Positions 4,588 through 58,985 of a stretch of DNA of 64,000 nt are shown here, piece by piece. The DNA comes from an uncultured delta proteobacterium. GTDB lineage: Bacteria > Desulfobacterota > Binatia > Binatales > Binataceae. A program made the position numbers and the translations under genes. The notes under the pieces are model-generated. The model was given only the letters and a program-made list of their open reading frames with translations. It did not search any database and was not told the origin of the DNA. How positions within the stretch are numbered: position 1 is the first letter of the stretch; each line of letters opens with the position of its first letter. Location of the stretch: assembly GCA_963765675.1 (NCBI GenBank), contig CAVXXK010000001.1:27485-91484 (forward strand). Reading direction: 5' to 3'.

Positions 4588-6198
4588 ATGGCGAAAGCGC
4601 GAAAGACAGCCAAGCCGCGGAAGATTTTCGTTCCGGTGGTTCCACAAGGCGCGACTTGGATCGAAAGCGACAGCTACGACCGCCGCGCCTGGAGCGAGAT
4701 TCTGTCCGGCACTCCTGCGTTCAAGGACCTGACCGAGGCGGGCGGCGCGCTGGTCCCGCACTTCGACGCGCTGCTCGCGGATTTTTTCCTCGCGCTGTTC
4801 AAGTTCAACCTCGTATGGCACAAGCCCGGCGCCGTGCGCCGCGCGGCTGCCCTCAACCGCACAATCCTGGATGAAATTTTGCCTTCGCCCGCTTTCGAGG
4901 CGCTGAAAAACCGCACTCTGCTCGAAGAAGACAAGGCCGCGATCGCGGCGATTGTGCTCGGCGAGCGGGCGCTCGAAATGATTCGCAGCGAACGCTTCCT
5001 GAATCGGCGCGAGATGGTCGATCTGTGGGATCTCGAGCATCAGGAACAGGACCTCGCCGCGCGCGCCGACGCGCTCAAGACGATCCAGGAGATGACCGAG
5101 AAGCCCGAAGAGGAAGGCGCCGGCGGCAATCCCAAGGCGAGCGACGACGCAAAAAAGAAGATGGCTGCGATGCTCGAAACGGCGGCGCGCGCCGCGCAGG
5201 TCTCCGAGGCGCGGCTCAATCAGAAATCACGGCAGGTCGAGAGCGATCTCAAGAATAGCGATCACACCGAACTGCGCCGGATGCAGCTCAAAGCCGGAGA
5301 ACTCGCCGCCGAGATCGATCGCGCCGCCGAGGACAGCCACGATTTCAGCCGCGAGTTCGGGCAAGGCGGACGGATGAACGCTGGCGAGCGGCTCGAGCTG
5401 GGACGCCATCTGGCGAAAAGCCGCAAGCTCGGCGAGCTGGCGCGGATGGTCGGCCGCATGAAACAGGACGCGCGCGCGATTCGCCACAAGACGCTCGAGC
5501 GCGGCGTCGCCGAAGCCTACGATATCGAGCGCGGCGCCGACCTCGGCAGGATGATCCCGTCGGAGCTGGTCGCGATGCATCATCCAATTCTCGCGATCGA
5601 TTTCCGTCGCCGTCTGCTCGAATCCGATCTTCTCCAATACCGGCTGCGCGACGACGAGCAGAAGGGCAAGGGCCCGATGATCGTTTGTATCGACGTCAGC
5701 TCCTCGATGCAGGGGGACAAGGAGCTGTGGGCGAAGGCGGTGGGGCTGACGCTGATGGATATCGCGCGGCGCGGGCGGCGCCTTTTTCGCGCCGTGATGT
5801 TTTCCTCGGGCGACACGAGCCTCAAGGTGCTCGATCTGAATCGCGAGCGGCGCTATCAACCCGAGCTCGCGAAGGTGATCGAGATGGCCGAATATTTTCC
5901 GGGCGGCGGCACCGATTTTCAGCAGCCGCTCGACGCTGCCGTGGCGCTGCTCGAAGAGCGCAAGCTGAAGCGCGGCGATATCGTGATAATCACCGACGGA
6001 GAATCGCAAGTCGCGCCCGAGTGGCTCGCGCATCTGAAAGAGCGCAAGGAAGCTTTGCAATTTTCGATCTTCGGCGTGCTCGTCGATGTCGGATCGTCGG
6101 AGATGTCGTCGCTGCGGCAATTCGCCGACCGGATCACGTCGGTAAAAACGCTAAGCGACTCCGCCACCCGCGACATCTTTCTGCACGTGCAATCATGA
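4588..6198 (+). CDS. von Willebrand factor A (VWA) domain protein (CoxE/ViaA-like)
   Basis: 536 aa with a C-terminal VWA fold. It carries the MIDAS motif D-V-S-S-S-M (…MIVCIDVSSSMQGDKELW…) and …IVIITDGES…. GGAGG lies 9 nt upstream of the ATG. No MoxR-type ATPase partner is present in the window. Confidence 0.75.
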   Translation: MAKARKTAKPRKIFVPVVPQGATWIESDSYDRRAWSEILSGTPAFKDLTEAGGALVPHFDALLADFFLALFKFNLVWHKPGAVRRAAALNRTILDEILPSPAFEALKNRTLLEEDKAAIAAIVLGERALEMIRSERFLNRREMVDLWDLEHQEQDLAARADALKTIQEMTEKPEEEGAGGNPKASDDAKKKMAAMLETAARAAQVSEARLNQKSRQVESDLKNSDHTELRRMQLKAGELAAEIDRAAEDSHDFSREFGQGGRMNAGERLELGRHLAKSRKLGELARMVGRMKQDARAIRHKTLERGVAEAYDIERGADLGRMIPSELVAMHHPILAIDFRRRLLESDLLQYRLRDDEQKGKGPMIVCIDVSSSMQGDKELWAKAVGLTLMDIARRGRRLFRAVMFSSGDTSLKVLDLNRERRYQPELAKVIEMAEYFPGGGTDFQQPLDAAVALLEERKLKRGDIVIITDGESQVAPEWLAHLKERKEALQFSIFGVLVDVGSSEMSSLRQFADRITSVKTLSDSATRDIFLHVQS

Positions 6199-8754: not shown

Positions 8755-9483
8755 CTAATTGCCGCCGGGAGGCTCGTCGGGCGGCTGGTCCGAGGTACCC
8801 GGACTGTCAGGCGAGCTTTCGTCGGGTGTGACTTCTTCCGGGACGATTACCGGCTCGGTGAAATCGGCCGCCAGGTTGCAGCACATCACGTAACTCGAAC
8901 CCGCGCGCGGCTGAGCGGCGTAGGCCTCGAGCGATCCATCGGCAAGGACCTTTACCGCCTGGTAGCTGGTCGAACCCGACGCGCGTTCGATCGTGAAGAC
9001 ATAGAATGAGCCGCGGTCGAGTGGTTCCGGCGGCCCTTCGTCCGGAATCATCTGCTGGTAGTGCGAGGGGAGTTTTCCGTACTCGAGGTTCTTCGGCGCG
9101 TAGTCTGCCTTTCCGAATGCAGAAATCTCCTCGGTGATGCCGCGGTCAGATTTTATATCCCAGATGGGCACACCGCCGTCGAAGCGGACCACCGAGGCGA
9201 CCTTGCCGCCGCTTCCCGCCGCGTTCGCGATAATCTCGGCGCCGAAGAATTTCGTCACCGTCGCGCGCACAAGCGTGTCGCCGCTCTTGTGATAGGTGAT
9301 TTCGACGGTGGCCTTCGGCGGCGGCATCGGCTCGCCCGGTCCGGCGTCGGCGGTGTCGTCGGTGTCGTCGTTGTTGGTTGTCGAGCAGCCCGCGACCATG
9401 AGCGCAACCATCAGAATGGCGGCGATCGCGCTGGCCCATAGGCGCCGTCGTGCACTGGCGCGCAGTTCATTATGCATCAGCAT
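8755..9483 (-). CDS. Putative lipoprotein of unknown function
   Basis: N-terminus MLMHNELRASARRRLWASAIAAILMVALMVAGCSTT has a positively charged n-region, an h-region and a lipobox (L-M-V-A-G-C). No recognisable domain. Confidence 0.5.
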   Translation of the reverse strand: MLMHNELRASARRRLWASAIAAILMVALMVAGCSTTNNDDTDDTADAGPGEPMPPPKATVEITYHKSGDTLVRATVTKFFGAEIIANAAGSGGKVASVVRFDGGVPIWDIKSDRGITEEISAFGKADYAPKNLEYGKLPSHYQQMIPDEGPPEPLDRGSFYVFTIERASGSTSYQAVKVLADGSLEAYAAQPRAGSSYVMCCNLAADFTEPVIVPEEVTPDESSPDSPGTSDQPPDEPPGGN

Positions 9484-9509
9484 ACCGATCGGCTAGTCTC
9501 TGCGGCCGG

Positions 9510-10886
9510 GTGGACATCGGGGATAAAAGCGAAAAGATCGGGCTCCGGCCTCTTCTAATCTACGCACAGGGACAGACCGGCCTCAACCTGTGCGCGACGC
9601 TTTCCGCGATGCATCTGCTGTATTTCTACAGCGATCGGCGCGGATTGTCGCCGGCGCTGGCCGGACTCGCATTTTTTATCGCGCTGGTGCTCGACGCTCT
9701 GACCGACCCGCTGGTCGGCAATATTTCGGACAGTGCGCGCTTCAAGTCGGGACGCCGGCGGCCGTTTTTTCTGACCGCGATCCCGATGGGTATCTGCTAC
9801 TACCTGCTGCTCTCGCCGCCGGCGTTGAACAAGGGACTGTTCGCGTGGTTCCTGGTTTTCTACTTCCTGCAACTGACCTCGCGGAAGTTTTACGAGACCG
9901 CGTACGGCGCGCTGATGCCCGAGTTGACGCTCGACTACGACGAGCGCACCCGCCTTTCTACCTATCGGCAACTGTTCGGTACGGCGGGCGATATCAGCGG
10001 AGCGCTGCTGCCGTTCGCCGCCGCCTGGATTTTCGCGAAGGGACTCGATTTCCAGATCACCGGCGGCGTCTGCGCGGTGATCGTCGCGGGCGGTGCTCTG
10101 TTCGCCTACGTCAATCTGCGCGAGCGACCGGGCTTCGCCGACCGCGAACGCTTCAACCTGCGCGAGTCGATGAAGAGCGCGCTCGCGAACCGCCCGTTTA
10201 TCATCCTGATGCTCGCGACCACGCTCGCGATCATGGCGATCAATATCCCGACCGTCCTGATCCGCTTCCTGGCGAAGTATTGGGTGCATGACGAAAACGC
10301 GGCCGCACGGTGGCTTATCGCGTACTTCGCGGGCTCGATGGTTTCGTATCCGTTCTGGTTTCGGATCACGGTGCGGTTCGAGAAAAAGCCCGCGTACGTC
10401 GTCGCGATGCTCGCCAATGCGAGTTGCTCGCTGATGTTCATGCTGCTCACTCCGCGCAACACGCTGTGGATGCTGGTGCTGATGGTGCTCAGCGGATTTT
10501 CCGCGATCGGAATCTGGGTGACGCAGATGTCCGCCGCCGCCGACGTGATCGAATGGGACGAAGAGCGGACCGGACGCCGGCAGGAAGGCGCGTACGGCGG
10601 AATCACCTCGATGGGAATAAAAATCGCGACCGCGCTCTCACTGGTCCTGGTCGGTCCGGTGATGGGATGGATCGGCTACCGGCCCGGGATGGCCGAGCTG
10701 CCGCGCGCGGCGGCCGAAAATCTGCGCACGCTGTTCGCGGTCGCGCCGGCGATAATTTATGTGCTGAGCGCGATCGTGTTTGCGCGCTATCCAATCACCC
10801 GCGCCAGCCATCGCGCGATGCGCGATCGCCTGGCCGCCCGCGGCGCTCCCGGCGAAGAAGCACCCGCCGAAAAATCGATCGCGTGA
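9510..10886 (+). CDS. MFS transporter, glycoside-pentoside-hexuronide (GPH) cation symporter family (MelB-like)
   Basis: …SEKIGLRPLLIYAQGQTGLNLCATLSAMHLLYFYSDRRGLSPALAGLAFFIALVLDALTDPLVGNISD… matches the GPH N-terminal signature, with ~12 TM segments. The track ORF starts at the ATG at 9450, but that overlaps the divergent lipoprotein start. The GTG at 9510 is proposed instead, so the start is uncertain. Confidence 0.75.
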   Translation: MDIGDKSEKIGLRPLLIYAQGQTGLNLCATLSAMHLLYFYSDRRGLSPALAGLAFFIALVLDALTDPLVGNISDSARFKSGRRRPFFLTAIPMGICYYLLLSPPALNKGLFAWFLVFYFLQLTSRKFYETAYGALMPELTLDYDERTRLSTYRQLFGTAGDISGALLPFAAAWIFAKGLDFQITGGVCAVIVAGGALFAYVNLRERPGFADRERFNLRESMKSALANRPFIILMLATTLAIMAINIPTVLIRFLAKYWVHDENAAARWLIAYFAGSMVSYPFWFRITVRFEKKPAYVVAMLANASCSLMFMLLTPRNTLWMLVLMVLSGFSAIGIWVTQMSAAADVIEWDEERTGRRQEGAYGGITSMGIKIATALSLVLVGPVMGWIGYRPGMAELPRAAAENLRTLFAVAPAIIYVLSAIVFARYPITRASHRAMRDRLAARGAPGEEAPAEKSIA

Positions 10887-10975
10887 AAGGTCTGCTTGAG
10901 CCTGTTCGCCAGCGGCGGTAAACAACGTCAATCCGCCAGCACATGAGCCCGCACAAACGCAGGCACCGCCCTACT
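10807..10975 (+). repeat. Direct repeat DR1 (3' end of the MFS gene plus ~90 bp downstream), left boundary of the Rhs island
   Basis: CCATCGCGCGATGCGCGATCGCCTGGCCGC…GGCGAAGAAGCACCCGCCGAAAAATCGATCGCGTGA…CGGCGGTAAACAACGTCAATCCG… recurs at 15153-15320 at ~85% identity. That second copy includes a remnant encoding …GHRAMRDRLAARGAPGEEASAEKSIA*. Confidence 0.85.
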
Positions 10976-10989
10976 GCGCCAACGGCAAC

Positions 10990-12549
10990 GTGACCACCTA
11001 CACTTACGATCCGATGGATCGCCGCGCATCAAGGACCGATGCGCTGGGCGCCGTGGAGAGCTACGCCTACGACGGAATGAGTAACCTTACCAGCCACACG
11101 GATCGCAATGGGAACGTAACCAGCTACAGCTACGACGGGCTGAACCGCAGGACGTTTGCGGGTTTTGGATACAACGGCAGCGGGTATCAGAGCACGATTA
11201 ACTATACGTGGGACGGGGGCGACCGCCTGACGCAGGTGGTGGATTCAATTGCGGGAACCATCTCGCGGACTTACGACGGGCTCGACGACCTGACCGACGA
11301 GCAGACGCCGACGGGCGAGGTCAGCTACGCGTATGACAACGCGAGGAGGCGGACGTCGATGACGGTGGTGGGGCAGCCTGCGGCGGCCTCCTACGCGTGG
11401 GACAACGCCAACCGATTGACCGGAATTACCCAGGGGAGCGCGTCGGTTGCGTTCAATTATGACAGCGCGAGCCGAAGGACTACGCTGACGCTGCCCAACG
11501 GGATCGAGGTGGGGTATAGTTACGACAACAACTCGCGGATAAGCGGGATGACCTGGACGTTGGCCGGCAACCAGATCGGAGACCTCGAGTACGATTACGA
11601 TGCGGATGGGCGCGTGGTCGAGAAGACGGGGAGCCTCGCGCAGACCAACCTGCCGCAGCCGGTGACCGGAAATACCTTCAATGCCGATAACGAGATGACG
11701 GCGTTCAACGGCACTCCGATGACTTACGACGCAAACGGCAACCTGCTCAACGATGGGAGCAACGCCTACGCTTGGGATGCGCGCAATCATCTGAGCGCGA
11801 TCAGCGGTGCGAATGCAGCCAGTTTCGTCTATGACCCGTTGGGGCGGCGGATCAGCAAGACTATCGGGAGTACGACGACGAGCTTCCTGTACGATGGGCT
11901 CAACCCAGTACAGGAACTTCAATCGGGCGCGCCGAGCGCGAACATGCTGACGGGGCTCGGGATCGACGAATACTTCCAGCGCAGCGATGCCTCGGGTGCG
12001 AGCAGCTACCTGACAGATGCGCTGGGCAGCACGCTGGCGCTCGCAAACCCGGCGGGCGGCTTAGCGACCAGCTATACGTATGATCCGTTTGGGACCACTG
12101 CGGTGTCGGGTTCGGGTACAAATCCCTTCCAGTTCACCGGCCGAGAAAATGACCTCAACGGTCTTTATTATTTGCGTGCCCGTTACTACAACCCAGCGTT
12201 GCAGCGATTCCTGAGTCAGGATCCCATAGGAGTCCGAGGCGGGATGAATCTTTATGGCTATGTCGGAAATAACCCTGTAAACTCTTTCGATTTGTTGGGA
12301 TTGGGCGGTACACCCTCGACGACGCCCACGCCGACCAGTTGTCCAACGCCGATTCCCGTGGATCCAACCCAGGCACCAACAACATGCCAAAAGCACCTAG
12401 CCTGTGAAATAGGATGGGAGGGCACATGTGACCAGTGCAACGAATTCGAGAATCCCCAGCCGGTATTTGTTTGTCACGTTGGCTGTGTCATTACAGGGGC
12501 GGTAGTATGCGAGATTGAGTTTCCCTGCAGCCTCCGGGGTAATGACTGA
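10990..12549 (+). CDS. Rhs/YD-repeat protein fragment (5'-truncated): YD repeats, RHS core end (…DPxGL) and an ~80-aa Pro/Thr-linker plus Cys-rich C-terminal tip
   Basis: Repeated YDxxGR/NxxSYxYD motifs and the core signature …GLYYLRARYYNPALQRFLSQDPIGVRGGMNLYGYVGNNPVNSFDLLGL. The C-terminal tip reads GGTPSTTPTPTSCPTPIPVDPTQAPTTCQKHLACEIGWEGTCDQCNEFENPQPVFVCHVGCVITGAVVCEIEFPCSLRGND. The reading frame opens at 10900 inside DR1 and has no N-terminal Rhs region. The first in-frame start is the GTG at 10990. Confidence 0.85.
   Translation: MTTYTYDPMDRRASRTDALGAVESYAYDGMSNLTSHTDRNGNVTSYSYDGLNRRTFAGFGYNGSGYQSTINYTWDGGDRLTQVVDSIAGTISRTYDGLDDLTDEQTPTGEVSYAYDNARRRTSMTVVGQPAAASYAWDNANRLTGITQGSASVAFNYDSASRRTTLTLPNGIEVGYSYDNNSRISGMTWTLAGNQIGDLEYDYDADGRVVEKTGSLAQTNLPQPVTGNTFNADNEMTAFNGTPMTYDANGNLLNDGSNAYAWDARNHLSAISGANAASFVYDPLGRRISKTIGSTTTSFLYDGLNPVQELQSGAPSANMLTGLGIDEYFQRSDASGASSYLTDALGSTLALANPAGGLATSYTYDPFGTTAVSGSGTNPFQFTGRENDLNGLYYLRARYYNPALQRFLSQDPIGVRGGMNLYGYVGNNPVNSFDLLGLGGTPSTTPTPTSCPTPIPVDPTQAPTTCQKHLACEIGWEGTCDQCNEFENPQPVFVCHVGCVITGAVVCEIEFPCSLRGND
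11150..12075 (+). repeat. Internal direct repeat (Rhs core-encoding segment), copy 1
   Basis: ~925 bp at ~90% identity to 13603-14525. Similarity ends at …GCGACCAGCTA (protein …LATSY). Confidence 0.8.
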
Positions 12550-12734
12550 TTGAGTATAGGCTCCTACCAGCAGACGCTATCCATGGCTATCACACGAAAG
12601 CAGTATTACTAAGAGGTGGCTTGCCGTTTCCCATAGATGGGCACGAGTGATTAGCAACTATCAAGTGCTAAGTTGTTTATGAGAATAGATCTCGTAAGTA
12701 TTAGTGGTTGTAAACGTAGCTTATAGGCATTGAA

Positions 12735-13151
12735 ATGCGGGGTGAGAAGAAATATGTCGGCAAGCATGTAGCACTTTTCATTGGTGTAGTGTACGCGATT
12801 ATCTGGTATCGAATTCCATATATAGCGGCTGGAGAAGGCTGGCTTAGTGTCTACTTGCCAGCCATTTCTCTGCTATTTGCGGTAATGCTCGTGCTCACGC
12901 TCTATTCCGATGACACGCCATGGTTGAATCTGACATACTTTTTCCCGGGCGTGATCATCGGCGTATCTATCGATACTCTAGTGTTCCACAGCAAGGCCTC
13001 GAGAATTGCGTGGCTATTCGAATCCCTAAGCCTTTGCGTGTTTCTAGCACCGATCGCTGTTTTGGCGACAGCGCTTGGTCGCTGGATTAGCAGGAGACGG
13101 AAAAGGCCTGGCAATGAAATTCCTGTTCATGATGAAAGCGAGACTCCATGA
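12735..13151 (+). CDS. Small multi-pass membrane protein in a low-GC segment; candidate Rhs immunity protein 1
   Basis: 138 aa, 3-4 hydrophobic helices. The GC content is markedly lower than the genome. It lies immediately downstream of the Rhs tip. No recognisable domain. Confidence 0.4.
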   Translation: MRGEKKYVGKHVALFIGVVYAIIWYRIPYIAAGEGWLSVYLPAISLLFAVMLVLTLYSDDTPWLNLTYFFPGVIIGVSIDTLVFHSKASRIAWLFESLSLCVFLAPIAVLATALGRWISRRRKRPGNEIPVHDESETP

Positions 13152-13602
13152 GATCGGCGGGGGAACGGAGTGATCATCCTCCAGTGCGTTGACAAAGCAA
13201 GCGAGAAGGTTCGACCGGTGCGCGTACGCGACTGGCGATCACACTATACGTTAGAAGCCTAGGGCGGACGGTGAACGGTTACGATCTCGTCGAGATGTTC
13301 TCTGAGGTTGGTAAAGTCCTGAGTTCGCAGATCATCTATGACCGCAAGACGAATCGTTCGCGGGGATTTGGCTTTCTCTTCGCGATCCGTTTTCTCGCGG
13401 CGTTTTCTCTGGTTGCTCTCGTGAGACCCAGCGATATCATTCGAAGTTGGAGATACCGTCCAGGCGATCCGCTCTGAGAAGGAACTCGTAGCAGTCGTGG
13501 TGCGCTCGAGAAGCACCCTGGCTAGCGAAACATGTTCCGGCGAATAATGCTAGGGTTCGACGGTCTTCCAGAACGGGTTAGAAAATATTCCTTACAAACT
13601 CA

Positions 13603-14525
13603 CAGTTGCATTCGGCTACAACGGGAGCGGCTATCAGAGCACGATCGGCTACACCTGGGACGGGGGTGACCGTCTGACGCAGGTGGTCGATTCAATTGCG
13701 GGAACGATCGCGCGGACCTATGACGGGCTCGACGACCTGACCGACGAGCAGACGCCGCCGGGCGAGGTCAGCTACGGGTATGACAACGCGAGGCGGCGGA
13801 CGTCGATGACTGTTGTGGGGCAACCTGCGGCGGCATCATACGCGTGGGACAACGCGAACCGGCTGACCGGAATTACCCAAGGGAGCGCTTCGGTTGCGTT
13901 CAATTATGACAGCGCGAGCCGAAGGACAACGCTGACGCTGCCCAACGGAATTGTGGTGGCGTATAGTTATGATAAAGATTCGCGGGTAAGCGCGATGACC
14001 TGGACGTTGGCTGGCAACCAGATTGGAGACCTCGAGTACGATTACGATCCGGACGGACGCGTGATCGAGAAGACGGGGAGCATGGCGGCGACCAATCTGC
14101 CGCAGCCGGTGACTGGAAACGCCTTCAATGCGGACAACGAGATGACGGCGTTCAACGGTACCGCGTTGAGCTACGATCCGAACGGCAACCTGCTCAACGA
14201 TGGGAGCAACACCTACGCCTGGGACACGCGCAATCATCTGAGCGCGATCACGGGCGCAAATACCGCGAGCTTCGTCTATGACCCGTTCGGGCGGCGGATG
14301 AGCAAGACGATTGGAGGAGCGGCGACGAGTTTCCTCTACGACGGCCTAAATCCCGTGCAAGAGCTTCAAGCTGGAACGCCGAGTGCAAACATGTTTACGG
14401 GACTGGGGATCGACGAATACTTTCAGCGTACCGACGCCTCGGGTGCGAGCAGTTATCTCACAGATGCGCTCGGCAGCACACTCGCATTGGCAAACTCGGC
14501 AGGCAGCCTCGCGACCAGCTACAAC
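13603..14525 (+). repeat. Internal direct repeat (Rhs core-encoding segment), copy 2
   Basis: See 11150-12075. Confidence 0.8.
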
Positions 14526-14672
14526 AAGGCCTTGGTTAGCTGTCTTGAAGGTTTGCGTGACGATCCGCACAACTGGCCTTTCCCGCCGGATCCAAGTGAC
14601 GATCCGGGAGACATTGGCGCACATGAGTATAGAGAAGGCGCAATCTATATATTCCAGCATGGGGTGTGGTGA
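13683..14672 (+). CDS. Second Rhs/YD-repeat fragment (truncated at both ends; no RHS core end; short divergent tail)
   Basis: The frame opens at ~13549 with no start until the ATG at 13683. Its protein is ~90% identical to residues ~60-360 of fragment 1 up to …LATSY. It then diverges into NKALVSCLEGLRDDPHNWPFPPDPSDDPGDIGAHEYREGAIYIFQHGVW*. This is probably a recombinational remnant (pseudogene-like). Confidence 0.7.
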   Translation: MVDSIAGTIARTYDGLDDLTDEQTPPGEVSYGYDNARRRTSMTVVGQPAAASYAWDNANRLTGITQGSASVAFNYDSASRRTTLTLPNGIVVAYSYDKDSRVSAMTWTLAGNQIGDLEYDYDPDGRVIEKTGSMAATNLPQPVTGNAFNADNEMTAFNGTALSYDPNGNLLNDGSNTYAWDTRNHLSAITGANTASFVYDPFGRRMSKTIGGAATSFLYDGLNPVQELQAGTPSANMFTGLGIDEYFQRTDASGASSYLTDALGSTLALANSAGSLATSYNKALVSCLEGLRDDPHNWPFPPDPSDDPGDIGAHEYREGAIYIFQHGVW

Positions 14673-14704
14673 TCTATCAATCGAACGGAAGGAGGGGGCT
14701 GACT

Positions 14705-15028
14705 GTGGGGGCCGCTGACGATAAGCAAATGTTAGTATTTAATGCGTTTCTAGCGGCGTTGGCGGCGCTATTGCCCTTTTGGTTTTATCATATTGGGTTA
14801 GAGTATTCGTTCCTCCAGAAGCTGCCCTACATGTTCAGAGGCTTGGCGTGGGATCCAATCGCCTTGAACGTTCTGCTATCAATTCCTTTCGTATTTCTAG
14901 CAATTCGCGCTCTCAGGTTGGCCGGCTCATTTCGGAGGAGCGTTCGTCTGCTAATTATAGCAGCTCGGGTTTGTGTGTTTCATTTACATTTTGCGAACAT
15001 TGTTCCTGTTGATAGTCTGGTCAATTAA
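14705..15028 (+). CDS. Small membrane protein, low GC; candidate immunity protein 2
   Basis: GGAGGG at 14690-14695, then GTG at 14705 (or ATG at 14729). …MLVFNAFLAALAALLPFWFYHIGLEYSFLQKLPYMFRGLAWDPIALNVLLSIPFVFLAIRALRLAG… is a hydrophobic AT-rich ORF immediately after Rhs fragment 2. Confidence 0.35.
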   Translation: MGAADDKQMLVFNAFLAALAALLPFWFYHIGLEYSFLQKLPYMFRGLAWDPIALNVLLSIPFVFLAIRALRLAGSFRRSVRLLIIAARVCVFHLHFANIVPVDSLVN

Positions 15029-15152
15029 TGGCTTCGCGCCCTAACGGCTGCATCGAAGTCGCGCCCGCAATATAAACACGCCGCCTCGAATGCGTGGTTG
15101 AGCGCGAGACCGAGCGTCCCGCTCACGATGCTGGCAGCGGAATAGGGTACGG

Positions 15153-15320
15153 CCATCGCGCGATGCGCGATCGGCTGGCCGCACGAGGCGCGCCCGGCGA
15201 AGAAGCATCCGCCGAAAAATCGATCGCGTGAGAGTCGGCTTGAGACTGTTCGCGAGCGGCGGTAAACAACATCAATCCGTTGGCACGTGAGCTCGCACCA
15301 GCGAAAGCAGCGCCATACTG
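15153..15320 (+). repeat. Direct repeat DR2 (degenerate copy of the MFS 3' end), right boundary of the Rhs island
   Basis: See DR1. It lies immediately upstream of the flavoenzyme gene start at 15329. Confidence 0.85.
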
Positions 15321-15328
15321 GACCTACA

Positions 15329-16471
15329 ATGCAATTCGACTCGATAGTGGTGGGCGTCGGCGGGATGGGCAGCGCAGCCGCCTATCATTTGGCGCACCGC
15401 GGACAACGCGTGCTTGGACTTGAGCGCTTCGACATCCCTAACGCGATGGGTTCCTCCCACGGCGTCACGCGCATCTTCCGGCTGCCGTACTACGAGGACC
15501 CGGCCTATGTCCCCCTGCTGCGCCGGGCGTTTCAGCTATGGCGCGAAATCGAGACTCGCGCGGGTGAGCCTCTTCTGTTCGTGACCGGCTCGATTGATTC
15601 CAGCCTGGAGGACGACGCGCTGTTTGCAGGCGCGCTTGCCTCCGCGCGCCAGCATAAGCTCCCGCACGAGGTGCTGACCGGCGCGGAAGTGAACCAACGT
15701 TTCCCAGGCTATCGTCTGCCGCCGCGTCATCGCGCGGTGTTTCAGCGCGACGGTGGGTTTGTTGCGAGCGAGCGTGCGATCGTCGCGCATGTGTGCGCCG
15801 CACAATCCGCCGGCGCCGAGATTCATGCGCGCGAGCGCGTGCTCGGCTGGGATGCCAGTAGCGGCGGGGTGCGAGTGACTACCGACAAGGGCCGCTATGA
15901 CTGCGCGCATCTGATTCTCGCCGCGGGCGCGTGGATGAGCGAGCTTGCCAGTCCGCTCGGACGCCTTGCGATTCCCGAGCGCCAGGTTCTCGCGTGGTTC
16001 CAGCCTCTTCGGACCGAGTTGTATCAGCCCGATCGGTTTCCAGTCTTCAATCTATCGGTCGAGGAAGGGCGTTTTTACGGATTGCCGATCTTCCAGGTCC
16101 CGGGATTCAAGGTGGGCCGCTACCATCACCGCGAGGAAACCTCCCCTGCTGACGAGATCCGGCGCGAGATCGACGCGGAAGACGAACGCATCCTGCGCCA
16201 GTTCACCGAACGCTATTTCCCCGCGGCCAGCGGCTCGACGATGGCACTGCGGACCTGCATTTTTACCAACACGCCTGACGAGCACTTTGTGCTCGATCGT
16301 CATCCGCAATTTCCGCAGGTGATCATCGCGTCGCCATGCTCGGGGCACGGGTATAAGTTCTGCAGCGTCATCGGCGAGATAATCGCCGACCTCGCAACTG
16401 GTGACGGAACCACGCGGCACGAGATCGGTTTCCTGAGATTGAATCGATTTACACGGGCCGCCAAAAGTTAG
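15329..16471 (+). CDS. FAD-dependent oxidoreductase, monomeric sarcosine oxidase / N-methyltryptophan oxidase (SolA/MTOX) family
   Basis: MQFDSIVVGVGGMGSAAAYHLA… is a GxGxxG dinucleotide fold. The C-terminal …SPCSGHGYKF… matches the covalent-FAD cysteine region of MSOX/MTOX. Confidence 0.8.
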   Translation: MQFDSIVVGVGGMGSAAAYHLAHRGQRVLGLERFDIPNAMGSSHGVTRIFRLPYYEDPAYVPLLRRAFQLWREIETRAGEPLLFVTGSIDSSLEDDALFAGALASARQHKLPHEVLTGAEVNQRFPGYRLPPRHRAVFQRDGGFVASERAIVAHVCAAQSAGAEIHARERVLGWDASSGGVRVTTDKGRYDCAHLILAAGAWMSELASPLGRLAIPERQVLAWFQPLRTELYQPDRFPVFNLSVEEGRFYGLPIFQVPGFKVGRYHHREETSPADEIRREIDAEDERILRQFTERYFPAASGSTMALRTCIFTNTPDEHFVLDRHPQFPQVIIASPCSGHGYKFCSVIGEIIADLATGDGTTRHEIGFLRLNRFTRAAKS

Positions 16472-54136: not shown

Positions 54137-55432
54137 TTATCTGAGTGCTCCCCGGTAGCTCAGTCGGTAGAGCAGACGGCTGTTAACCGTCGGGTCGCTG
54201 GTTCGAATCCGGCCCGGGGAGCCAATCCTAAGTGATTGATATTCCAAGCTTTTGTTATCGCTCTGGGACAAAGCAGTAGATCCGTTAGCAGGCGACTGTG
54301 TGGACTTTTGTGGGGACCCGCTCCTTGGACCGGAATGATCCACCGTTACGTCCGGTTCAAGCGTTGCGATCGCATCGCGGCGCGCCTGCACGCGAATGTG
54401 CGCATACCGACCGAGCATTCGCGGACTGACGTGCCCAGCCAGTTGACGAATCGTTTCCTCCGAGACGGTCGGATTCTCCGCGAGCCGGGTAACGAACGTA
54501 TGGCGGGCGTCGTAAAAACGGATGTTGACGCCCGCCTTCGCGCGAGCGGTATCGAACGCCGTCCGATAGCTCGAATAACTCATGGGCCGGTCGGCATTAA
54601 CGCCATAGATGTGCGGGATGCGGTCGTTTCCTGCGATTGCGACATGATGGAACGGGAACACAAACGATTCTGGATTGGCGTCCGGAAAATGCGACAGCCA
54701 GAGCGTCAGCGCGGCGCAGGCTCGTTGGGTCAGTGGGATCATGCGACCGGTTCCCGCCTCCGTCTTCGAGCGTCCAACTACGATTTCACCCTTGGCGATC
54801 ACGGCATCGCGCCATTCAAGCAGAAGACTCGAGCGGCGCAGCGCGCGAGTCTCGGACGGCCGCAGGCCGGCGTCGATCGAAAGAACGAAGAAGGGATATA
54901 GCGAAGCCGAGCGGCTTTGCCTGATCGCATCAAGCAGCCGCTGCTCATCTTCTCGGCTAAGTGCCTGGCCCACATCCGATCGCTGACGTAACATCCTGAC
55001 GCGACCAGAGATGTGGGACCAAATACCGAAGTGGCGAAGTATCGCGCGAAGCGTGCCGACTTCGGCATTGATCTGGCGCCCGGAAAGCCCCTCAGCTTGG
55101 CGTTTGCGCTGAAGGTCCGCAACATCATCAGCCGAAAAGTCGGTAACCAGCCGGCTCCCAAACTGGCGTGAAAGCTTCGCGATGTATTGCCGGTAATAAC
55201 GTTCCCCCAGAGGTGAGAGGCCGGTCTTGGATTGAAACCATTGGCGCGCTGCCGCCGAGAAGAGCGGTCTTTCCCGTTTCGTCAGACCGTTAACGCCGAG
55301 TTCGAGATCGCGTCGGCGGGCAAGCTCCGCCTGACGGGCAATTGTCTTCGAGTCGGTGCGTGTGCTCTCTCGAATTCGAGCGCCGTCGAATTCAAACTCG
55401 AACCACCAAATATTTCCTCGCTTGTAGAGCAT
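54137..55432 (-). CDS. Tyrosine-type site-specific recombinase/integrase (tRNA-Asn-associated)
   Basis: MLYKRGNIWWFEFEFDGARIRESTRTDSKT… is an integrase SAM-like N-domain. The catalytic region reads …LRPSE…R…YDARHTFVTRL…HVSPRMLGRYAHI… (R…HxxR…Y). The ORF has no stop before it reads through the tRNA 3' half, so the true 3' end is probably earlier. Confidence 0.85.
   Translation of the reverse strand: MLYKRGNIWWFEFEFDGARIRESTRTDSKTIARQAELARRRDLELGVNGLTKRERPLFSAAARQWFQSKTGLSPLGERYYRQYIAKLSRQFGSRLVTDFSADDVADLQRKRQAEGLSGRQINAEVGTLRAILRHFGIWSHISGRVRMLRQRSDVGQALSREDEQRLLDAIRQSRSASLYPFFVLSIDAGLRPSETRALRRSSLLLEWRDAVIAKGEIVVGRSKTEAGTGRMIPLTQRACAALTLWLSHFPDANPESFVFPFHHVAIAGNDRIPHIYGVNADRPMSYSSYRTAFDTARAKAGVNIRFYDARHTFVTRLAENPTVSEETIRQLAGHVSPRMLGRYAHIRVQARRDAIATLEPDVTVDHSGPRSGSPQKSTQSPANGSTALSQSDNKSLEYQSLRIGSPGRIRTSDPTVNSRLLYRLSYRGALR
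54149..54224 (+). tRNA. tRNA-Asn (anticodon GTT)
   Basis: 76 nt. Acceptor TCCCCGG/CCGGGGA, D-arm GCTC-AGTCGGTA-GAGC, anticodon arm GACGG-CTGTTAA-CCGTC (GTT), T-arm GCTGG-TTCGAAT-CCGGC, discriminator G plus CCA. Confidence 0.92.
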
Positions 55433-55539
55433 GGCGTCACCTGTTTTTCGCGATCCGGGTGGATCGCTCCGCCCTGAGGTCACGGGATTTTAGGATGAAG
55501 GAAATGATTCTCGGAGAGCATCGGGTTAAAGCATTTCGG

Positions 55540-56000: not shown

Positions 56001-58985
56001 TCAACCGAGTCTGGAGGGCGGCGCAGGATTCTGAGACGCGTGTGGCGGAGCGTAGCAACCGTGCCGAGCGCAGCGTCCGGCGCGGGTGCCGGCGGCGCGG
56101 TTGCCCGCGGAGCGCGCGCCACCTTTACAGCGGCGCGAAGCGGAGCGCGAGGCGTGCGATGCACGCCGTGTCCGAGCGGCGAAGCTTGCGGAGCCCGAGC
56201 GTCCGCGCTCATAGCGAAGCGCCGATGAAAAAATGATTCGACGACAGCGTTCGGCAAGACCAGTCACCTTCTGATGCCGTGGGCAGGGGTGATGCTCTGG
56301 CGCGGCGGTTCTGGAACCATCTTGAGGTCTCGCGCCCAGGTTTAGGTTGAGCCGTTCCAGGGCGATCGACTTTTCGCGGTTGCGGCCGACCGCGTGCCGG
56401 AGGGCGGAACTGTCGTCGGTGTAGACGGTGACCCCGTGGCGCGCGCGGCTGATCGAGACGTAAAACTGTTTGCGGTTCACGAGTTCAGCCGAGCGAGCGG
56501 TATCGATGTTGACGATGACGCGGTCGACCGTCGCGCCCTGGCTGGAATGCGAAGTCGAGGCGTAACCGTAGTCGATGTGGCGGAGCCGACTGGCCGCGGC
56601 TTTGACTTCGCGCCCGTCGTCCATCCGCAGCGCGGCCTTTCGGTCGTCGATTGCAACGACCGTCGCAAAATCTCCGTTCGCGACGCCGAGCGCGCGGTCG
56701 GGTGCGCGGAACTGGATGCGGTCGCCCTTGGCGATGACTCTGCGCTCCTCGCGGAACAGATCGACGCCGGTGAGCCGCGCTGGGTTGTATTCAACTGCTC
56801 GACCGTCTTCGGTGCGCACGGTGATCCGGTTGAGATCCGAGTCTGTACTCTCGACTCGTGCGTACGTGTCCTTGCCGAGCCCAAGATGGCGGCTGCCACG
56901 GCGGTAGCGAATCACGTCGCCAACTTCGTAACTCTGAGCGCGCTGGCGCTGTGCGGTGGTTAGGTTGCGGTTGACGAGGATGATCTGCTCTTTCCCTTCG
57001 GCGCCGACATGGGAGCGCTGCTTCAGGAGTTCGCGAATGGCGGAGTTGAGTTGCCGGCGCTCGTCGTTGGCAGGACTGACGACCAATACGCGCTCTCCGG
57101 CCTCGTGCGCGGTGACGTATTCCTGTGCGATGGATTTATATCGCGCATCAGGATTGTCGATCTCGCGGATGCGGTCATGCTGCTCGAGCAGCGCGAGCGC
57201 GCGATCGATCTCTCCTTTGGCCGCAAGCTCCACTGCTTCGCGAAGGATAGGGTCCCGCTGGCGGCGAATCGTGTCCAGCCGCGCCACCGCATCCCGGCCT
57301 GCTGCATCTGGTGGATCGGGTCGTCCCGCCTCGATCGCATGGTGCTGATGCTGGTCGCCGACGAACACGATCCGTTCCACGCCTGCGTCGCGGGCCTGAT
57401 GAAGGAGGCGGTTGACCTGGCGCGTCGCGAGCAAACTCGACTCATCGACGATCCATAATTCCTGACGGCCAGAAGCGGAGATTTTATTTTCGATCAGACT
57501 TGCCACGGTTCGGGACTCGACTCCGGCTTCGGATAGCGCCTTGACCGCGCGCGTGGTCGGAGCAAAGCCGCGCACGGCGTAGCCGTGCTCTTCGGCGAAC
57601 TCGCGGATCGCTCCGACCGTGGTGGTCTTCGCGCTGCCGGCGCGGCCTTCGATCGAGGTGAGCCAGTCGGGCGTCGTGAGGATAAGTTGCGCGACTTCGA
57701 TTTGATCGGCGAACAATCCTCGGTCCGTTGCCCATCGGCGAATCTCTGTGTCATTCGCGATGGGCAGAATTTGGCCTTGGCCCGCGCGCATCAGGTCGAG
57801 GTTATCGCGCTCAAGGGCGAGCATCTCGGAAGTGGTGAAGGTGCCGCCCGGTGAGGCGATGGAAGCGTCCAGGACGATCAGCGCGCGGCGTTGTTCCCAA
57901 GCCATGCCCTCGCGGCGCAACTGGTCGAGATCAATTACTCCCATCGCGTGCTGGAGGGCGGTTGCTTCGAGCGCGCGACGGTCGATCACCGCCTCGCGCT
58001 CGGTGCTGTGCGCCACGGCGAAGCGAAGCGCCTCCTCGATCCTTGCCTGGGTGGAGACCCGAACGGCGGCCTGGGTGTGGGAATGGCCCTCGAAGCGGAT
58101 TCCGTAATCTCGCGCGCGCATGCGCCACTCCTCGCGAAGCTCGCCCTCGTCGCGCTGCTGCTTTGAGAGCCGGCTCTGATGAGCGATATTCTGCGCCGCG
58201 GCCGCTCCGCTGAGGCCGTTTCGCGCGAGCGTCTGCTCGATGTCCCGGCGGCGGCGCGAGAACGCCATCACCTGTTCTCGGCTATAACCTTCGAGCTCCC
58301 AGCGTCCATCGCCGCCGGTAACCGTGATGCCGTAGCCAAGTGAACGTACTTCGCGAGCCAGCTCGGAGCGATAAACCGCGCTGGCGAAGCTCTGTGAGCG
58401 ATAGATCTCGACCGGGTCGAGCCCACGCCATGCGCCGTCGGGCCGGCGAGTCATGTTGGCGATGACGACGTGGGTGTGGAGATGCGGATCGGGACCGTAG
58501 CCGTCATCTGCACCTTTGGCTGGACGCGCCGCGATATGGTCGAAACGCGCGGCGACGATGTTCCGGGTGAGTACCCATTCGCTGCCGCCCTTCTGACGCG
58601 ACAGCGCGTAATGCTCCAGCTCCGTCAGCGCGGTGCTGACCGCGCGGCGATGCGCATCGGTCAATCCGGCGTCTCCACCCGCCAGCGCCTGAATGCTGAC
58701 CGACTTGGGCGCGTTGAAGGTCGCGTCCCATCCCGCGCGGCGTTCGGTTCGTCCATTGGCGTTGCGGACGAGAACTTCGGCAGTGCCCGGCTGTTGGCCG
58801 CGAAGTATCGCGCGAAAATCTTCGGGAGCGACTTCGTCAGAGAGCCCGAGTGCGTCGGCGCCCTGCCCGAACCATTGACCGACGACTCGATGTTCTTCGG
58901 TGTAGTAATCGTCCTGCGAGTACTTCTCTTCGTAGTAGGTCTCGGCCTGACCGGCGCTGAGCGCCCCGCTCGACATGACCAGCAT
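56001..58985 (-). CDS. Conjugative relaxase-helicase, MobF family (TrwC/TraI-like)
   Basis: N-terminal …AETYYEEKYSQDDYY…NAPKSVSIQALAGGD…HLHTHVVIANMT… is the 3-His relaxase motif. The central/C-terminal RecD-like helicase carries the Walker A motif GRAGSAKTT. The ORF tail beyond ~residue 850 is low-complexity. Confidence 0.9.
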   Translation of the reverse strand: MLVMSSGALSAGQAETYYEEKYSQDDYYTEEHRVVGQWFGQGADALGLSDEVAPEDFRAILRGQQPGTAEVLVRNANGRTERRAGWDATFNAPKSVSIQALAGGDAGLTDAHRRAVSTALTELEHYALSRQKGGSEWVLTRNIVAARFDHIAARPAKGADDGYGPDPHLHTHVVIANMTRRPDGAWRGLDPVEIYRSQSFASAVYRSELAREVRSLGYGITVTGGDGRWELEGYSREQVMAFSRRRRDIEQTLARNGLSGAAAAQNIAHQSRLSKQQRDEGELREEWRMRARDYGIRFEGHSHTQAAVRVSTQARIEEALRFAVAHSTEREAVIDRRALEATALQHAMGVIDLDQLRREGMAWEQRRALIVLDASIASPGGTFTTSEMLALERDNLDLMRAGQGQILPIANDTEIRRWATDRGLFADQIEVAQLILTTPDWLTSIEGRAGSAKTTTVGAIREFAEEHGYAVRGFAPTTRAVKALSEAGVESRTVASLIENKISASGRQELWIVDESSLLATRQVNRLLHQARDAGVERIVFVGDQHQHHAIEAGRPDPPDAAGRDAVARLDTIRRQRDPILREAVELAAKGEIDRALALLEQHDRIREIDNPDARYKSIAQEYVTAHEAGERVLVVSPANDERRQLNSAIRELLKQRSHVGAEGKEQIILVNRNLTTAQRQRAQSYEVGDVIRYRRGSRHLGLGKDTYARVESTDSDLNRITVRTEDGRAVEYNPARLTGVDLFREERRVIAKGDRIQFRAPDRALGVANGDFATVVAIDDRKAALRMDDGREVKAAASRLRHIDYGYASTSHSSQGATVDRVIVNIDTARSAELVNRKQFYVSISRARHGVTVYTDDSSALRHAVGRNREKSIALERLNLNLGARPQDGSRTAAPEHHPCPRHQKVTGLAERCRRIIFSSALRYERGRSGSASFAARTRRASHASRSASRRCKGGARSAGNRAAGTRAGRCARHGCYAPPHASQNPAPPSRLG

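Follow-up and report, generated by a model that had tools for sequence, protein, structure and literature searches.

How might a C-terminal tip of only some fifty residues, rich in cysteines and occupying the place where proteins of the Rhs family carry their toxins, act on another cell, and what is the role of the small membrane protein encoded immediately behind it? This question is raised by positions 10990 to 13151 of a 64-kb stretch of DNA from an uncultured delta proteobacterium (hereafter the window), where a fragment of an Rhs gene ends in a cysteine-rich tip and is followed on the same strand by an open reading frame (ORF) for a predicted multi-pass membrane protein. Rhs tips are one of the chief sources from which new antibacterial activities come; of those characterised, the majority are enzymes of 100-200 amino acids (aa). 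Taken as a whole, the region reads as an orphan Rhs C-terminal toxin/immunity cassette, an interpretation to which a probability of about 0.6 can be given. Its toxin/immunity character is supported, at the level of sequence, by linkage, since the membrane ORF lies next to the tip in all three lineages in which the tip occurs. What is new here, as far as sequence comparison tells, is the tip family and its membrane partner, while the framework of the Rhs polymorphic toxin/immunity cassette is already known; if the tip is toxic, the family adds a non-enzymatic and probably envelope-acting type of Rhs toxin.

An Rhs Core End Followed by a Cysteine-Rich Tip

The features of the cassette, by position in the window and strand, are as follows.

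10990..12303, + strand: N-terminally truncated Rhs/YD-repeat core piece, 438 aa (Pfam, TIGR01643 and TIGR03696 matches; alignments with Rhs cores in the PDB)
12220..12303, + strand: core-terminating autoproteolysis-type motif DPIGV-(18 aa)-DLLGL, aa 411-438 (sequence; spacing computed)
12304..12384, + strand: Pro/Thr-rich linker GGTPSTTPTPTSCPTPIPVDPTQAPTT, 27 aa, with one invariant Cys (SCPTP; codon 12340-12342) (three-lineage alignment)
12385..12549, + strand: Cys-rich tip domain, then SLRGND and the stop codon (sequence; homologues P0003 and P0005)
12640..12734, + strand: conserved 5' leader of the membrane ORF (DNA alignment)
12735..13151, + strand: 138-aa predicted inner-membrane protein with four transmembrane (TM) helices, the putative cognate immunity protein (hydropathy, charge, AlphaFold2 (AF2) model, homologues)

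The ORF at 10990-12549 (+) encodes a 519-aa C-terminal Rhs fragment (fragment 1 below) that contains RHS_repeat in five stretches (Pfam, E 3e-30), a TIGR01643 match (E 5.2e-26) and the RHS-associated core domain TIGR03696, which spans aa 364-438 (E 5.9e-25). Its core, to judge by the residues, ends in a self-cleavage-type motif at which cleavage is predicted: DPIGV-(18)-DLLGL is a variant of DPxGL-(18)-DPxGL, the self-cleavage motif defined for Tse5 (PMC9637101), in which the spacing is exact and both aspartates are kept, the proline of the second motif being replaced by leucine. Solved Rhs cores in the PDB align to aa 2-449 of the ORF, and the alignments of the 26 solved sequences of the Rhs, Tc or teneurin type all end at aa 427-449, mostly at 434-442. 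The succession of an Rhs core end, a Pro/Thr linker and a Cys-rich tip of about 50 aa, first proposed from reading the letters of the window (the original prediction), is confirmed by the extent of TIGR03696, to aa 438, and by the linker at 12304-12384.

The tip begins with a 48-aa stretch holding eight cysteines, CQKHLACEIGWEGTCDQCNEFENPQPVFVCHVGCVITGAVVCEIEFPC (CQKHLAC...EIEFPC), at 12385-12528, which is followed by SLRGND and a stop codon at 12547-12549. The cysteines are spaced C-x5-C-x7-C-x2-C-x11-C-x3-C-x7-C-x5-C in the window and, as a family framework common to the three lineages, C-x5-C-x7/8-C-x2-C-x11/12-C-x3-C-x7-C-x5-C. The N-terminal half of the tip is acidic and its C-terminal half hydrophobic (PVFVCHVGCVITGAVVCEI); a single 19-aa hydrophobic stretch (Kyte-Doolittle maximum 2.31) accompanies the net acidic head. 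Overall, the three lineages are 42-66% identical, and the invariant positions comprise all eight tip cysteines, a ninth one within C-[PT]-T-P of the linker and the motif C-H-x-G-C-x3-G-A; the eight cysteines counted originally thus hold for the tip itself, the conserved total being nine. The distance from the last tip cysteine to the end of the protein is 1-7 residues in every lineage, and the ratio of nonsynonymous to synonymous substitutions (dN/dS) of the tip between lineages is 0.15-0.39 (Nei-Gojobori). The invariant cysteines, the conserved end and this low ratio together indicate that the tip is a genuine, selected and complete mini-domain. A longer toxin hidden by a frameshift behind the tip stop was considered and rejected, as the other downstream frames are full of stops. 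A lanthipeptide or other ribosomally synthesised and post-translationally modified peptide precursor (Ser/Thr/Cys-rich) was likewise dropped, the nearest flanking genes checked not being modification enzymes and the domain lying in the tip slot of an Rhs protein.

The statement that the tip matches no recognised type held in searches of Pfam, NCBIfam, PHROGs, PADLOC and the PDB sequence set, none of which contained a match, and a profile of the tip family drew one chance-level match (E 0.92) from all PDB chain sequences. A word-index search of 5.8 billion proteins with the tip or with the three-sequence tip alignment returned no match, a negative that is unreliable for short Cys-rich or low-complexity queries owing to the limits of the index: an exhaustive scan did find a 62%-identical protein. 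This phmmer scan, over 1.84 billion (1.84e9) cluster representatives, yielded two true relatives only, both metagenomic, namely P0003 (E 3e-16, 62% identical, a 349-aa Rhs fragment) and P0005 (E 2.8e-4, 44% identical, 173 aa); a third match, P0004, was set aside as a spurious repeat-protein artefact. Six-frame scanning of metagenome contigs from the Joint Genome Institute (JGI) added further tips in L006, L007 and L009 (P0005 type), the L006 and L007 cassettes being near-identical to each other and about 92% identical to the P0003 tip. No tip was found by scanning viral contigs. With no database family and two relatives in the exhaustive scan, the tip is best regarded as a real, rare and apparently undescribed family, seen only in metagenomes.

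A Predicted Membrane Protein behind Every Tip

The 138-aa ORF at 12735-13151, originally described as a multi-pass membrane protein, bears out that description in its sequence: it has four hydrophobic stretches and clusters of lysine and arginine at both ends. The protein is predicted to span the membrane four times with both its N- and C-termini in the cytoplasm; the AF2 model also has four helices, at a confidence (predicted local distance difference test, pLDDT, 55) too low for fold comparison. An invariant motif of its homologues, LYS[DE][DS]xPWLNLxYFF, falls at the turn between TM2 and TM3 of the predicted topology, and dN/dS between lineages is 0.37-0.47. Neither Pfam nor NCBIfam gave a match at E up to 0.1, and none was found in the PDB, PHROGs or PADLOC, in 185,579 species genomes searched by an alignment-based scan, or in a scan of viral contigs. 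The protein databases hold two homologues only, P0001 (identical) and P0002 (65% identical); the island recurs with identical sequence in two further assemblies (L001 and L002), and P0001 is encoded there. The leader of the ORF contains the invariant sequence GTAGGNATTGNAATGCG, which includes a likely AGG ribosome-binding site; no Rfam match and no consensus sigma-70 promoter were found within 12640-12734.

The tip and the membrane ORF share a composition of their own. The guanine-plus-cytosine (GC) content drops from about 0.61 (0.60-0.62) to 0.45-0.47 at 12400-13000, in agreement with the sharply AT-richer segment noted in the original prediction, and third codon positions show the same trend (GC 0.75, core; 0.56, tip; 0.51, membrane ORF). 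Since the GC of tip and membrane ORF is unlike that of the core, their composition is to be considered foreign.

Homologues of the membrane ORF lie downstream of the tip at every tip locus, that is, in the window and at the following positions.

L004, 2937-3146: membrane-ORF homologue, cut by the contig end
L006, 6366-6746: membrane-ORF homologue
L007, 698-1078: membrane-ORF homologue
L005 and L009, about 6234-6668 in L009: membrane-ORF homologue

Three lineages and five distinct contigs are represented, with a gap between tip and membrane ORF of 50-206 nt. The position expected of a cognate immunity gene, in which the ORF had been placed from the window alone, therefore recurs in all three lineages. 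Profile searches of 1.16 Mb also bear out the co-occurrence of the two genes: tip and membrane ORF were confined to the tip/membrane-ORF loci, and neither was found in the 78 other Rhs loci, which come from named genomes. A tip devoid of both Rhs context and a neighbouring membrane ORF, an arrangement that would speak against the pairing, was not seen; the coreless L005/L009 locus keeps the membrane ORF and adjoins a remnant of YD repeats. Between the window and L006 the tips are 60-66% and the membrane ORFs 63% identical, and between the window and L009 the corresponding values are 40-46% and 51%; the two genes diverge in step, and both are under purifying selection (dN/dS <0.5).

There is one exception to this pairing. 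In L003, the 65%-identical membrane ORF of P0002 occurs without a tip, directly after an unrelated gene that is putatively GHMP-kinase-like by its C-terminal sequence; the ORF keeps the conserved leader (GTAGGNATTGNAATGCG and about 100 nt upstream). Because a membrane ORF kept without its toxin is what is expected of immunity genes, the L003 copy resembles an orphan immunity gene.

Cassette Arrays and Other Short Tips

The closest Rhs cores (60-72% identity) are found in metagenome-assembled genomes (MAGs) labelled 'uncultured delta proteobacterium' and Candidatus Binatus/Binataceae; no synteny was found between the genes flanking the cassette in the window and the Rhs-bearing loci of MAGs. 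In L006, L009 and L010, different tips are strung together in arrays, with a separate ORF behind each of them. The array of L006 consists of a 922-aa Rhs ORF followed by C-terminal fragments with differing tips and small ORFs of their own, the Cys-rich cassette included. At L009 3357-6668 (and in L005), the arrayed cassettes are not borne on an Rhs shell: a first protein of 192 aa has a few YD repeats and a Cys-rich tail, and behind it lie two cassettes that have in common a leader of non-Rhs type, ...HPLYPAILGISDGIV..., and a P/T linker, one of them carrying a different Cys-rich tip (CGEYATACAQCGPQDLYDC...) with a membrane ORF of its own (5071-5607) and the other the tip studied here with its membrane ORF. 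From these arrays in L006 and L009/L005, it can be concluded that the tip behaves as a swappable module.

Another member of the L006 array deserves description in its own right. The Rhs fragment at L006 169-1185 ends in a tip with the hallmarks of secreted phospholipase A2 (YGDWCGPGW ... CCKVHDCCY) and a weak match to Pfam PLA2G12 (E 0.012), and by its sequence this tip looks like a disulfide-rich, envelope-acting enzyme.

It may also be asked whether the Cys-rich tail is a toxin at all. It might instead be a structural, adhesive or receptor-binding end-piece, or a pre-toxin or adaptor, with the membrane ORF as a functionally linked partner that confers no immunity, such as an anchor, exporter or receptor. 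The small size of the domain (about 50 aa), the lack of any catalytic motif or toxin homology in the searches made and the non-Rhs N-terminal region attached to it in L005/L009 are all compatible with such a role. However, the tip directly follows the Rhs self-cleavage motif, which is the toxin slot of characterised Rhs proteins (PMC9637101). Arrays of alternative tip and small-ORF cassettes are typical of polymorphic toxin loci, a foreign GC, as seen in tip and ORF, is characteristic of toxin/immunity modules that are shuffled, and the stand-alone membrane ORF of L003 fits an immunity gene better than an obligate partner. A non-toxin role is thus considered very unlikely, and a toxin/immunity cassette remains the preferred reading.

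The tip had been described as much shorter than typical Rhs tips of the nuclease or deaminase kind. It is indeed short, but short tips form a sizeable minority of related Rhs genes: among the 80 Rhs tips in the examined loci, the median length is 128.5 aa and 17 are of 90 aa or less. Fourteen of the 80 are of 110 aa or less with at least six cysteines, and these come from several unrelated families. Short Cys-rich tips (9-12 Cys, 82-107 aa) that are followed by predicted four-TM ORFs, as is the window tip, but bear no sequence relation to it, occur in L010 (4142-13995), where the same pair of a tip and a 166-aa ORF is present twice in the array, in L067 (6777-8115) and in L083 (3-3188); their sources are a Binatia-like MAG labelled 'uncultured delta proteobacterium', a Nitrospira and a member of the Gemmatimonadales, respectively. 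Rhs tips of this short, Cys-rich kind are thus frequent among uncultured soil lineages, and the window tip would then be part of a broader pattern.

In L010, L018, L029 and L012, from the MAGs nearest in Rhs core, the Rhs ORFs are of 450-830 aa only and start inside the repeats, as does a 796-aa ORF of L010 that begins 'MMLLLHTPVSAISD...TEYTDPNGY'. It may be that N-terminally truncated fragments are maintained in this clade as arrays away from a main gene; alternatively, indel errors of long-read sequencing break the ORFs.

Comparison with Known Toxin/Immunity Systems

The C-terminal toxin of Tse5 (RhsP1, PA2684) and its immunity protein Tsi5 in Pseudomonas aeruginosa (PMC9637101; PMC10684867) are the analogue with the fullest documentation. 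Tse5-CT, an Rhs tip of 149 aa, inserts into bilayers, in which its pores are cation-selective, and Tsi5 is an inner-membrane immunity protein with two predicted TM helices (PMC9637101). As in Tse5/Tsi5, the cassette combines a core with an end of the DPxGL-(18)-DPxGL type, a small tip without enzyme signature and an adjacent small, predicted integral-membrane partner; membrane insertion and depolarisation, as proposed for Tse5-CT, may be suggested for the tip by analogy. The differences are equally clear: several TM or amphipathic helices are predicted for Tse5-CT, and a Cys-rich composition is not part of its description, whereas the tip has about 50 aa, eight to nine invariant cysteines and one hydrophobic stretch; the 138-aa protein has four predicted TM helices, against two in Tsi5; and Tse5 is a full-length PAAR-like/VgrG-linked effector of a type VI secretion system, whereas the window copy is a truncated fragment without secretion context. 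The PDB chain search returned no similarity of the tip to Tse5, in a library that includes entry 8cp6, the CT chain of which was not confirmed there.

Among the polymorphic toxin domains on RHS proteins that Zhang et al. 2012 catalogue, one is a pore-former, Tox-WTIP, whose pore formation is predicted and which is defined by two membrane-spanning helices and the motifs RxxR and Wx[ST]IP (PMC3482391). The words 'cysteine-rich' and 'disulfide' are absent from the main text of that paper (PMC3482391). Like Tox-WTIP, the tip is a small non-catalytic C-terminal domain on an RHS-repeat protein, with a predicted action on membranes. Unlike Tox-WTIP, it contains neither RxxR nor Wx[ST]IP in any of its sequences and has a Cys framework instead.

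In terms of gene organisation, orphan rhs-CT/rhsI modules reportedly lie downstream of the main rhs genes of Salmonella and E. coli, in work associated with Koskiniemi et al. and Poole et al. With these enterobacterial modules the cassette shares truncated core pieces, full tips with immunity genes, core homology that permits recombination, a GC content below that of the core and an arrangement in cassette arrays; in contrast to them, it has no full-length rhs gene within 64 kb and sits in a self-contained, repeat-flanked island of 4.2 kb.

As for the membrane partner, the immunity proteins of pore-forming colicins, such as Cai, have four TM helices and both termini in the cytoplasm. Imm-CdiI, exemplified by CdiI of E. 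coli EC93, is an immunity family with two TM segments (PMC3482391). Like CdiI and Cai, the 138-aa protein is by prediction a small multi-pass inner-membrane protein encoded beside a membrane-acting toxin, and the four-TM topology of Cai, with N- and C-termini inside, is the one predicted for 12735-13151; however, no sequence relationship was found (Pfam/NCBIfam, E up to 0.1), so that the likeness is one of topology only.

Proposed Mechanism and Competing Explanations

Should the tip be deployed by a full-length relative of fragment 1, it would be encapsulated in the Rhs shell, released by cleavage behind DLLGL and passed into a neighbouring cell's periplasm. There, its cysteines would oxidise to give a compact, disulfide-locked mini-protein; the need for this oxidation would also make the tip harmless in the cytoplasm of the producer. 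The hydrophobic C-terminal half (CHxGC-x3-GA-x2-C) would then engage the cytoplasmic membrane, and the bound tip would either depolarise or permeabilise it or block a membrane-embedded target, while the four-TM protein would protect kin by intercepting the toxin in or at the membrane, as Tsi5 does with the pore-forming Tse5-CT and Cai-type proteins do with pore-forming colicins. This specifically periplasmic and membrane-directed mechanism is drawn by analogy and remains tentative, its chances being put somewhat below even.

A number of observations weigh against the toxin/immunity reading or the membrane model that goes with it. The independent lineages number three, which leaves the statistics of co-occurrence thin, and in the L005/L009 lineage no Rhs core or DPxGL site lies upstream of the tip, so that its delivery is unexplained there. 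The window contains no full-length rhs gene (ORF >1,000 aa), and no secretion-system genes were seen in it. The AF2 model of the tip, built from the three-sequence alignment, has a pLDDT of 40.9 and is unusable for fold comparison. In the L009 lineage, the hydrophobic half of the tip is interrupted by Lys and Glu residues, which makes a classical TM helix doubtful. Finally, the tip is acidic, and its nested spacing C-x5-C / C-x2-C...C-H-x2-C / C-x5-C, with nine cysteines, fits metal binding as well.

These last two features lead to a further explanation, in which the tip is a metal-binding mini-domain, similar to a zinc knuckle or ribbon, that folds in the reducing cytoplasm and acts on a cytoplasmic target by binding and not by damage to the membrane, the membrane ORF serving for immunity or to block entry. 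A CxxC and a CHxxC lie in the tip between two C-x5-C pairs. This Cys/His arrangement (C-x5-C ... C-x2-C-x11-C-H-x2-C ... C-x5-C) does not vary among the three lineages, nine conserved cysteines, being an odd count, fit poorly into an all-disulfide fold, and acidity sets the domain apart from cationic membrane-active peptides. On the other hand, no zinc-finger profile was found in the tip, even at E thresholds of 1 in Pfam and 10 in the PDB. Immunity to Rhs toxins acting in the cytoplasm is normally conferred by a soluble binder, whereas the partner here has four TM segments and short loops, and the disulfide-type tip resembling secreted phospholipase A2 in the same arrays suggests that the tips of this Rhs clade act in an oxidising environment. 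The metal-binding account is therefore judged improbable, and the toxin/immunity reading with action in the envelope is retained.

In a wider and rather unlikely generalisation of the toxin/immunity reading, the tip would be the first example of a whole class of mini-protein toxins of about 50 aa, comparable in size to knottins and defensins, which Rhs proteins deliver and disulfides lock. Such toxins would be inert as long as they are in the reducing cytoplasm of the producer and would gain activity only on oxidative folding in the victim's periplasm, where they would form or nucleate an ion-conducting lesion neutralised within the bilayer by a dedicated four-TM protein; the unrelated short Cys-rich tips of L010, L067, L083, L006 and L009, which belong to the same Rhs clade of uncultured soil bacteria and some of which have multi-pass membrane ORFs behind them, would be further members of the class. 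At about 50 aa, the tip would also be a scaffold small enough to be synthesised for research on antibacterial peptides, although its practical value is limited for now, as the family is tiny and known from metagenomes only, the toxin is putative and the window copy is an orphan fragment.

A Probable Orphan Copy on a Repeat-Flanked Island

Going beyond the original prediction, the Rhs ORF at 10990-12549 proves to be an N-terminally truncated fragment. The solved Rhs-type proteins aligned to it are 664-3364 residues long, mostly at least 1,065, and align solely via their C-terminal 270-480 residues; about two-thirds of a normal Rhs shell is thus missing at the N-terminus, with 438 core residues left. 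No complete shell (~1,100+ repeat residues), N-terminal plug or secretion-associated domain is present in the ORF. An in-frame stop lies upstream at 10897-10899, beyond which the sequence is that of a transporter-gene repeat, and no Rhs sequence was found on reading the upstream frame. The only start codon available to the fragment is a GTG, without a clear ribosome-binding site. Given the truncated core, and with no Rhs sequence other than the pieces described here and no ORF >1,000 aa in 64 kb, this copy is most likely, to go by its sequence, an orphan module incapable of forming a full Rhs shell or of deploying its tip alone. At present it probably provides immunity against relatives that fire the toxin and a store of sequence with which a full-length rhs gene at another place in the genome could recombine.

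The start of fragment 1 has one further peculiarity. A duplicated oxidoreductase start (ATG 10943) opens a remnant ORF of 16 codons whose TGA stop at 10991-10993 overlaps the GTG of the Rhs ORF at 10990 to give GTGA. Such an overlap could amount to translational coupling and let fragment 1 be expressed; coincidence is equally possible.

The cassette sits in a 4.2-kb island that is flanked by direct repeats and lies between an MFS_2 transporter gene (9450-10886) and a gene for a flavin adenine dinucleotide (FAD)-dependent oxidoreductase (15287-16471). Besides the cassette, the island has the following features.

10805..10985, no strand: left copy of the ~180-bp direct repeat, left edge of the island (repeat search, pairwise alignment)
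13271..13477, + strand: gene remnant of an RNA-recognition-motif (RRM)-type RNA-binding protein, between the two Rhs fragments (Pfam RRM_1)
13611..14672, + strand: second, more degraded Rhs fragment
14666..15028, + strand: 120-aa hydrophobic ORF, GC 0.48, overlapping the end of fragment 2
15151..15330, no strand: right copy of the ~180-bp direct repeat, which closes the island on this side and runs on into the intact FAD-oxidoreductase gene

The repeats consist of the 3' end of the MFS_2 gene, the intergenic spacer and some 14 codons from the start of the FAD-oxidoreductase gene, and the Rhs ORF begins right at the edge of the left copy. They are 86% identical (mean, pairwise alignment), and this divergence of 14% suggests that one copy was imported with the island, for example by Campbell-type integration, through a single crossover, of a circular intermediate that carried a relative's homologous stretch. 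The Rhs regions of the 64-kb window are two only. In the second, 13611-14521 has 86% nucleotide identity to 11164-12074, which corresponds to aa 59-362 of fragment 1; the Rhs sequence of fragment 2 ends at 'LATSY', short of the RHS-associated core, and gives way to an unrelated tail of 49 aa. The RRM_1 match between the fragments (E 9.2e-7) is partial, covering profile positions 14-44 of 70 with the RNP1 motif RGFGF, and the remnant is island filler with no part in the function of the cassette. The 120-aa ORF has no family matches and is unrelated to the 138-aa ORF; neither it nor the tail of fragment 2 has a homologue in the examined loci except in L001, which holds the same island. The ORF is possibly a second orphan immunity gene and, together with the tail, the stump of another toxin/immunity pair.

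Could the whole island be a graveyard, in which decaying leftovers of an rhs locus were brought in by recombination and have no present function in the organism? The loss of about two-thirds of the shell from fragment 1 and its GTG start without a clear ribosome-binding site, the break of fragment 2 before the core end, the RRM remnant between the two, the diverged 180-bp repeats on either side and the absence of a full-length rhs gene from the 64 kb are what such decay would leave. By comparison, neither the tip nor the membrane ORF is broken, lengths and stop positions being conserved and dN/dS against relatives <0.5 for both, the membrane ORF retains its conserved leader and start, and the identical sequence is present in the two other assemblies, L001 and L002. 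Loss of all function is therefore regarded as unlikely, though it keeps some weight; as it concerns the window copy alone, it is compatible with a toxin/immunity nature of the family.

Elsewhere in the window, a tRNA-Asn gene (54149-54224, +) adjoins a tyrosine integrase (54137-55483, -), which is followed by a TrwC-type relaxase (56001-58985, -) and a TrwB/TraD-type coupling protein (58989-60800, -). The segment 54137-60800 is probably an integrative conjugative element at tRNA-Asn, and its coupling protein has <30% identity to anything in the plasmid collection.

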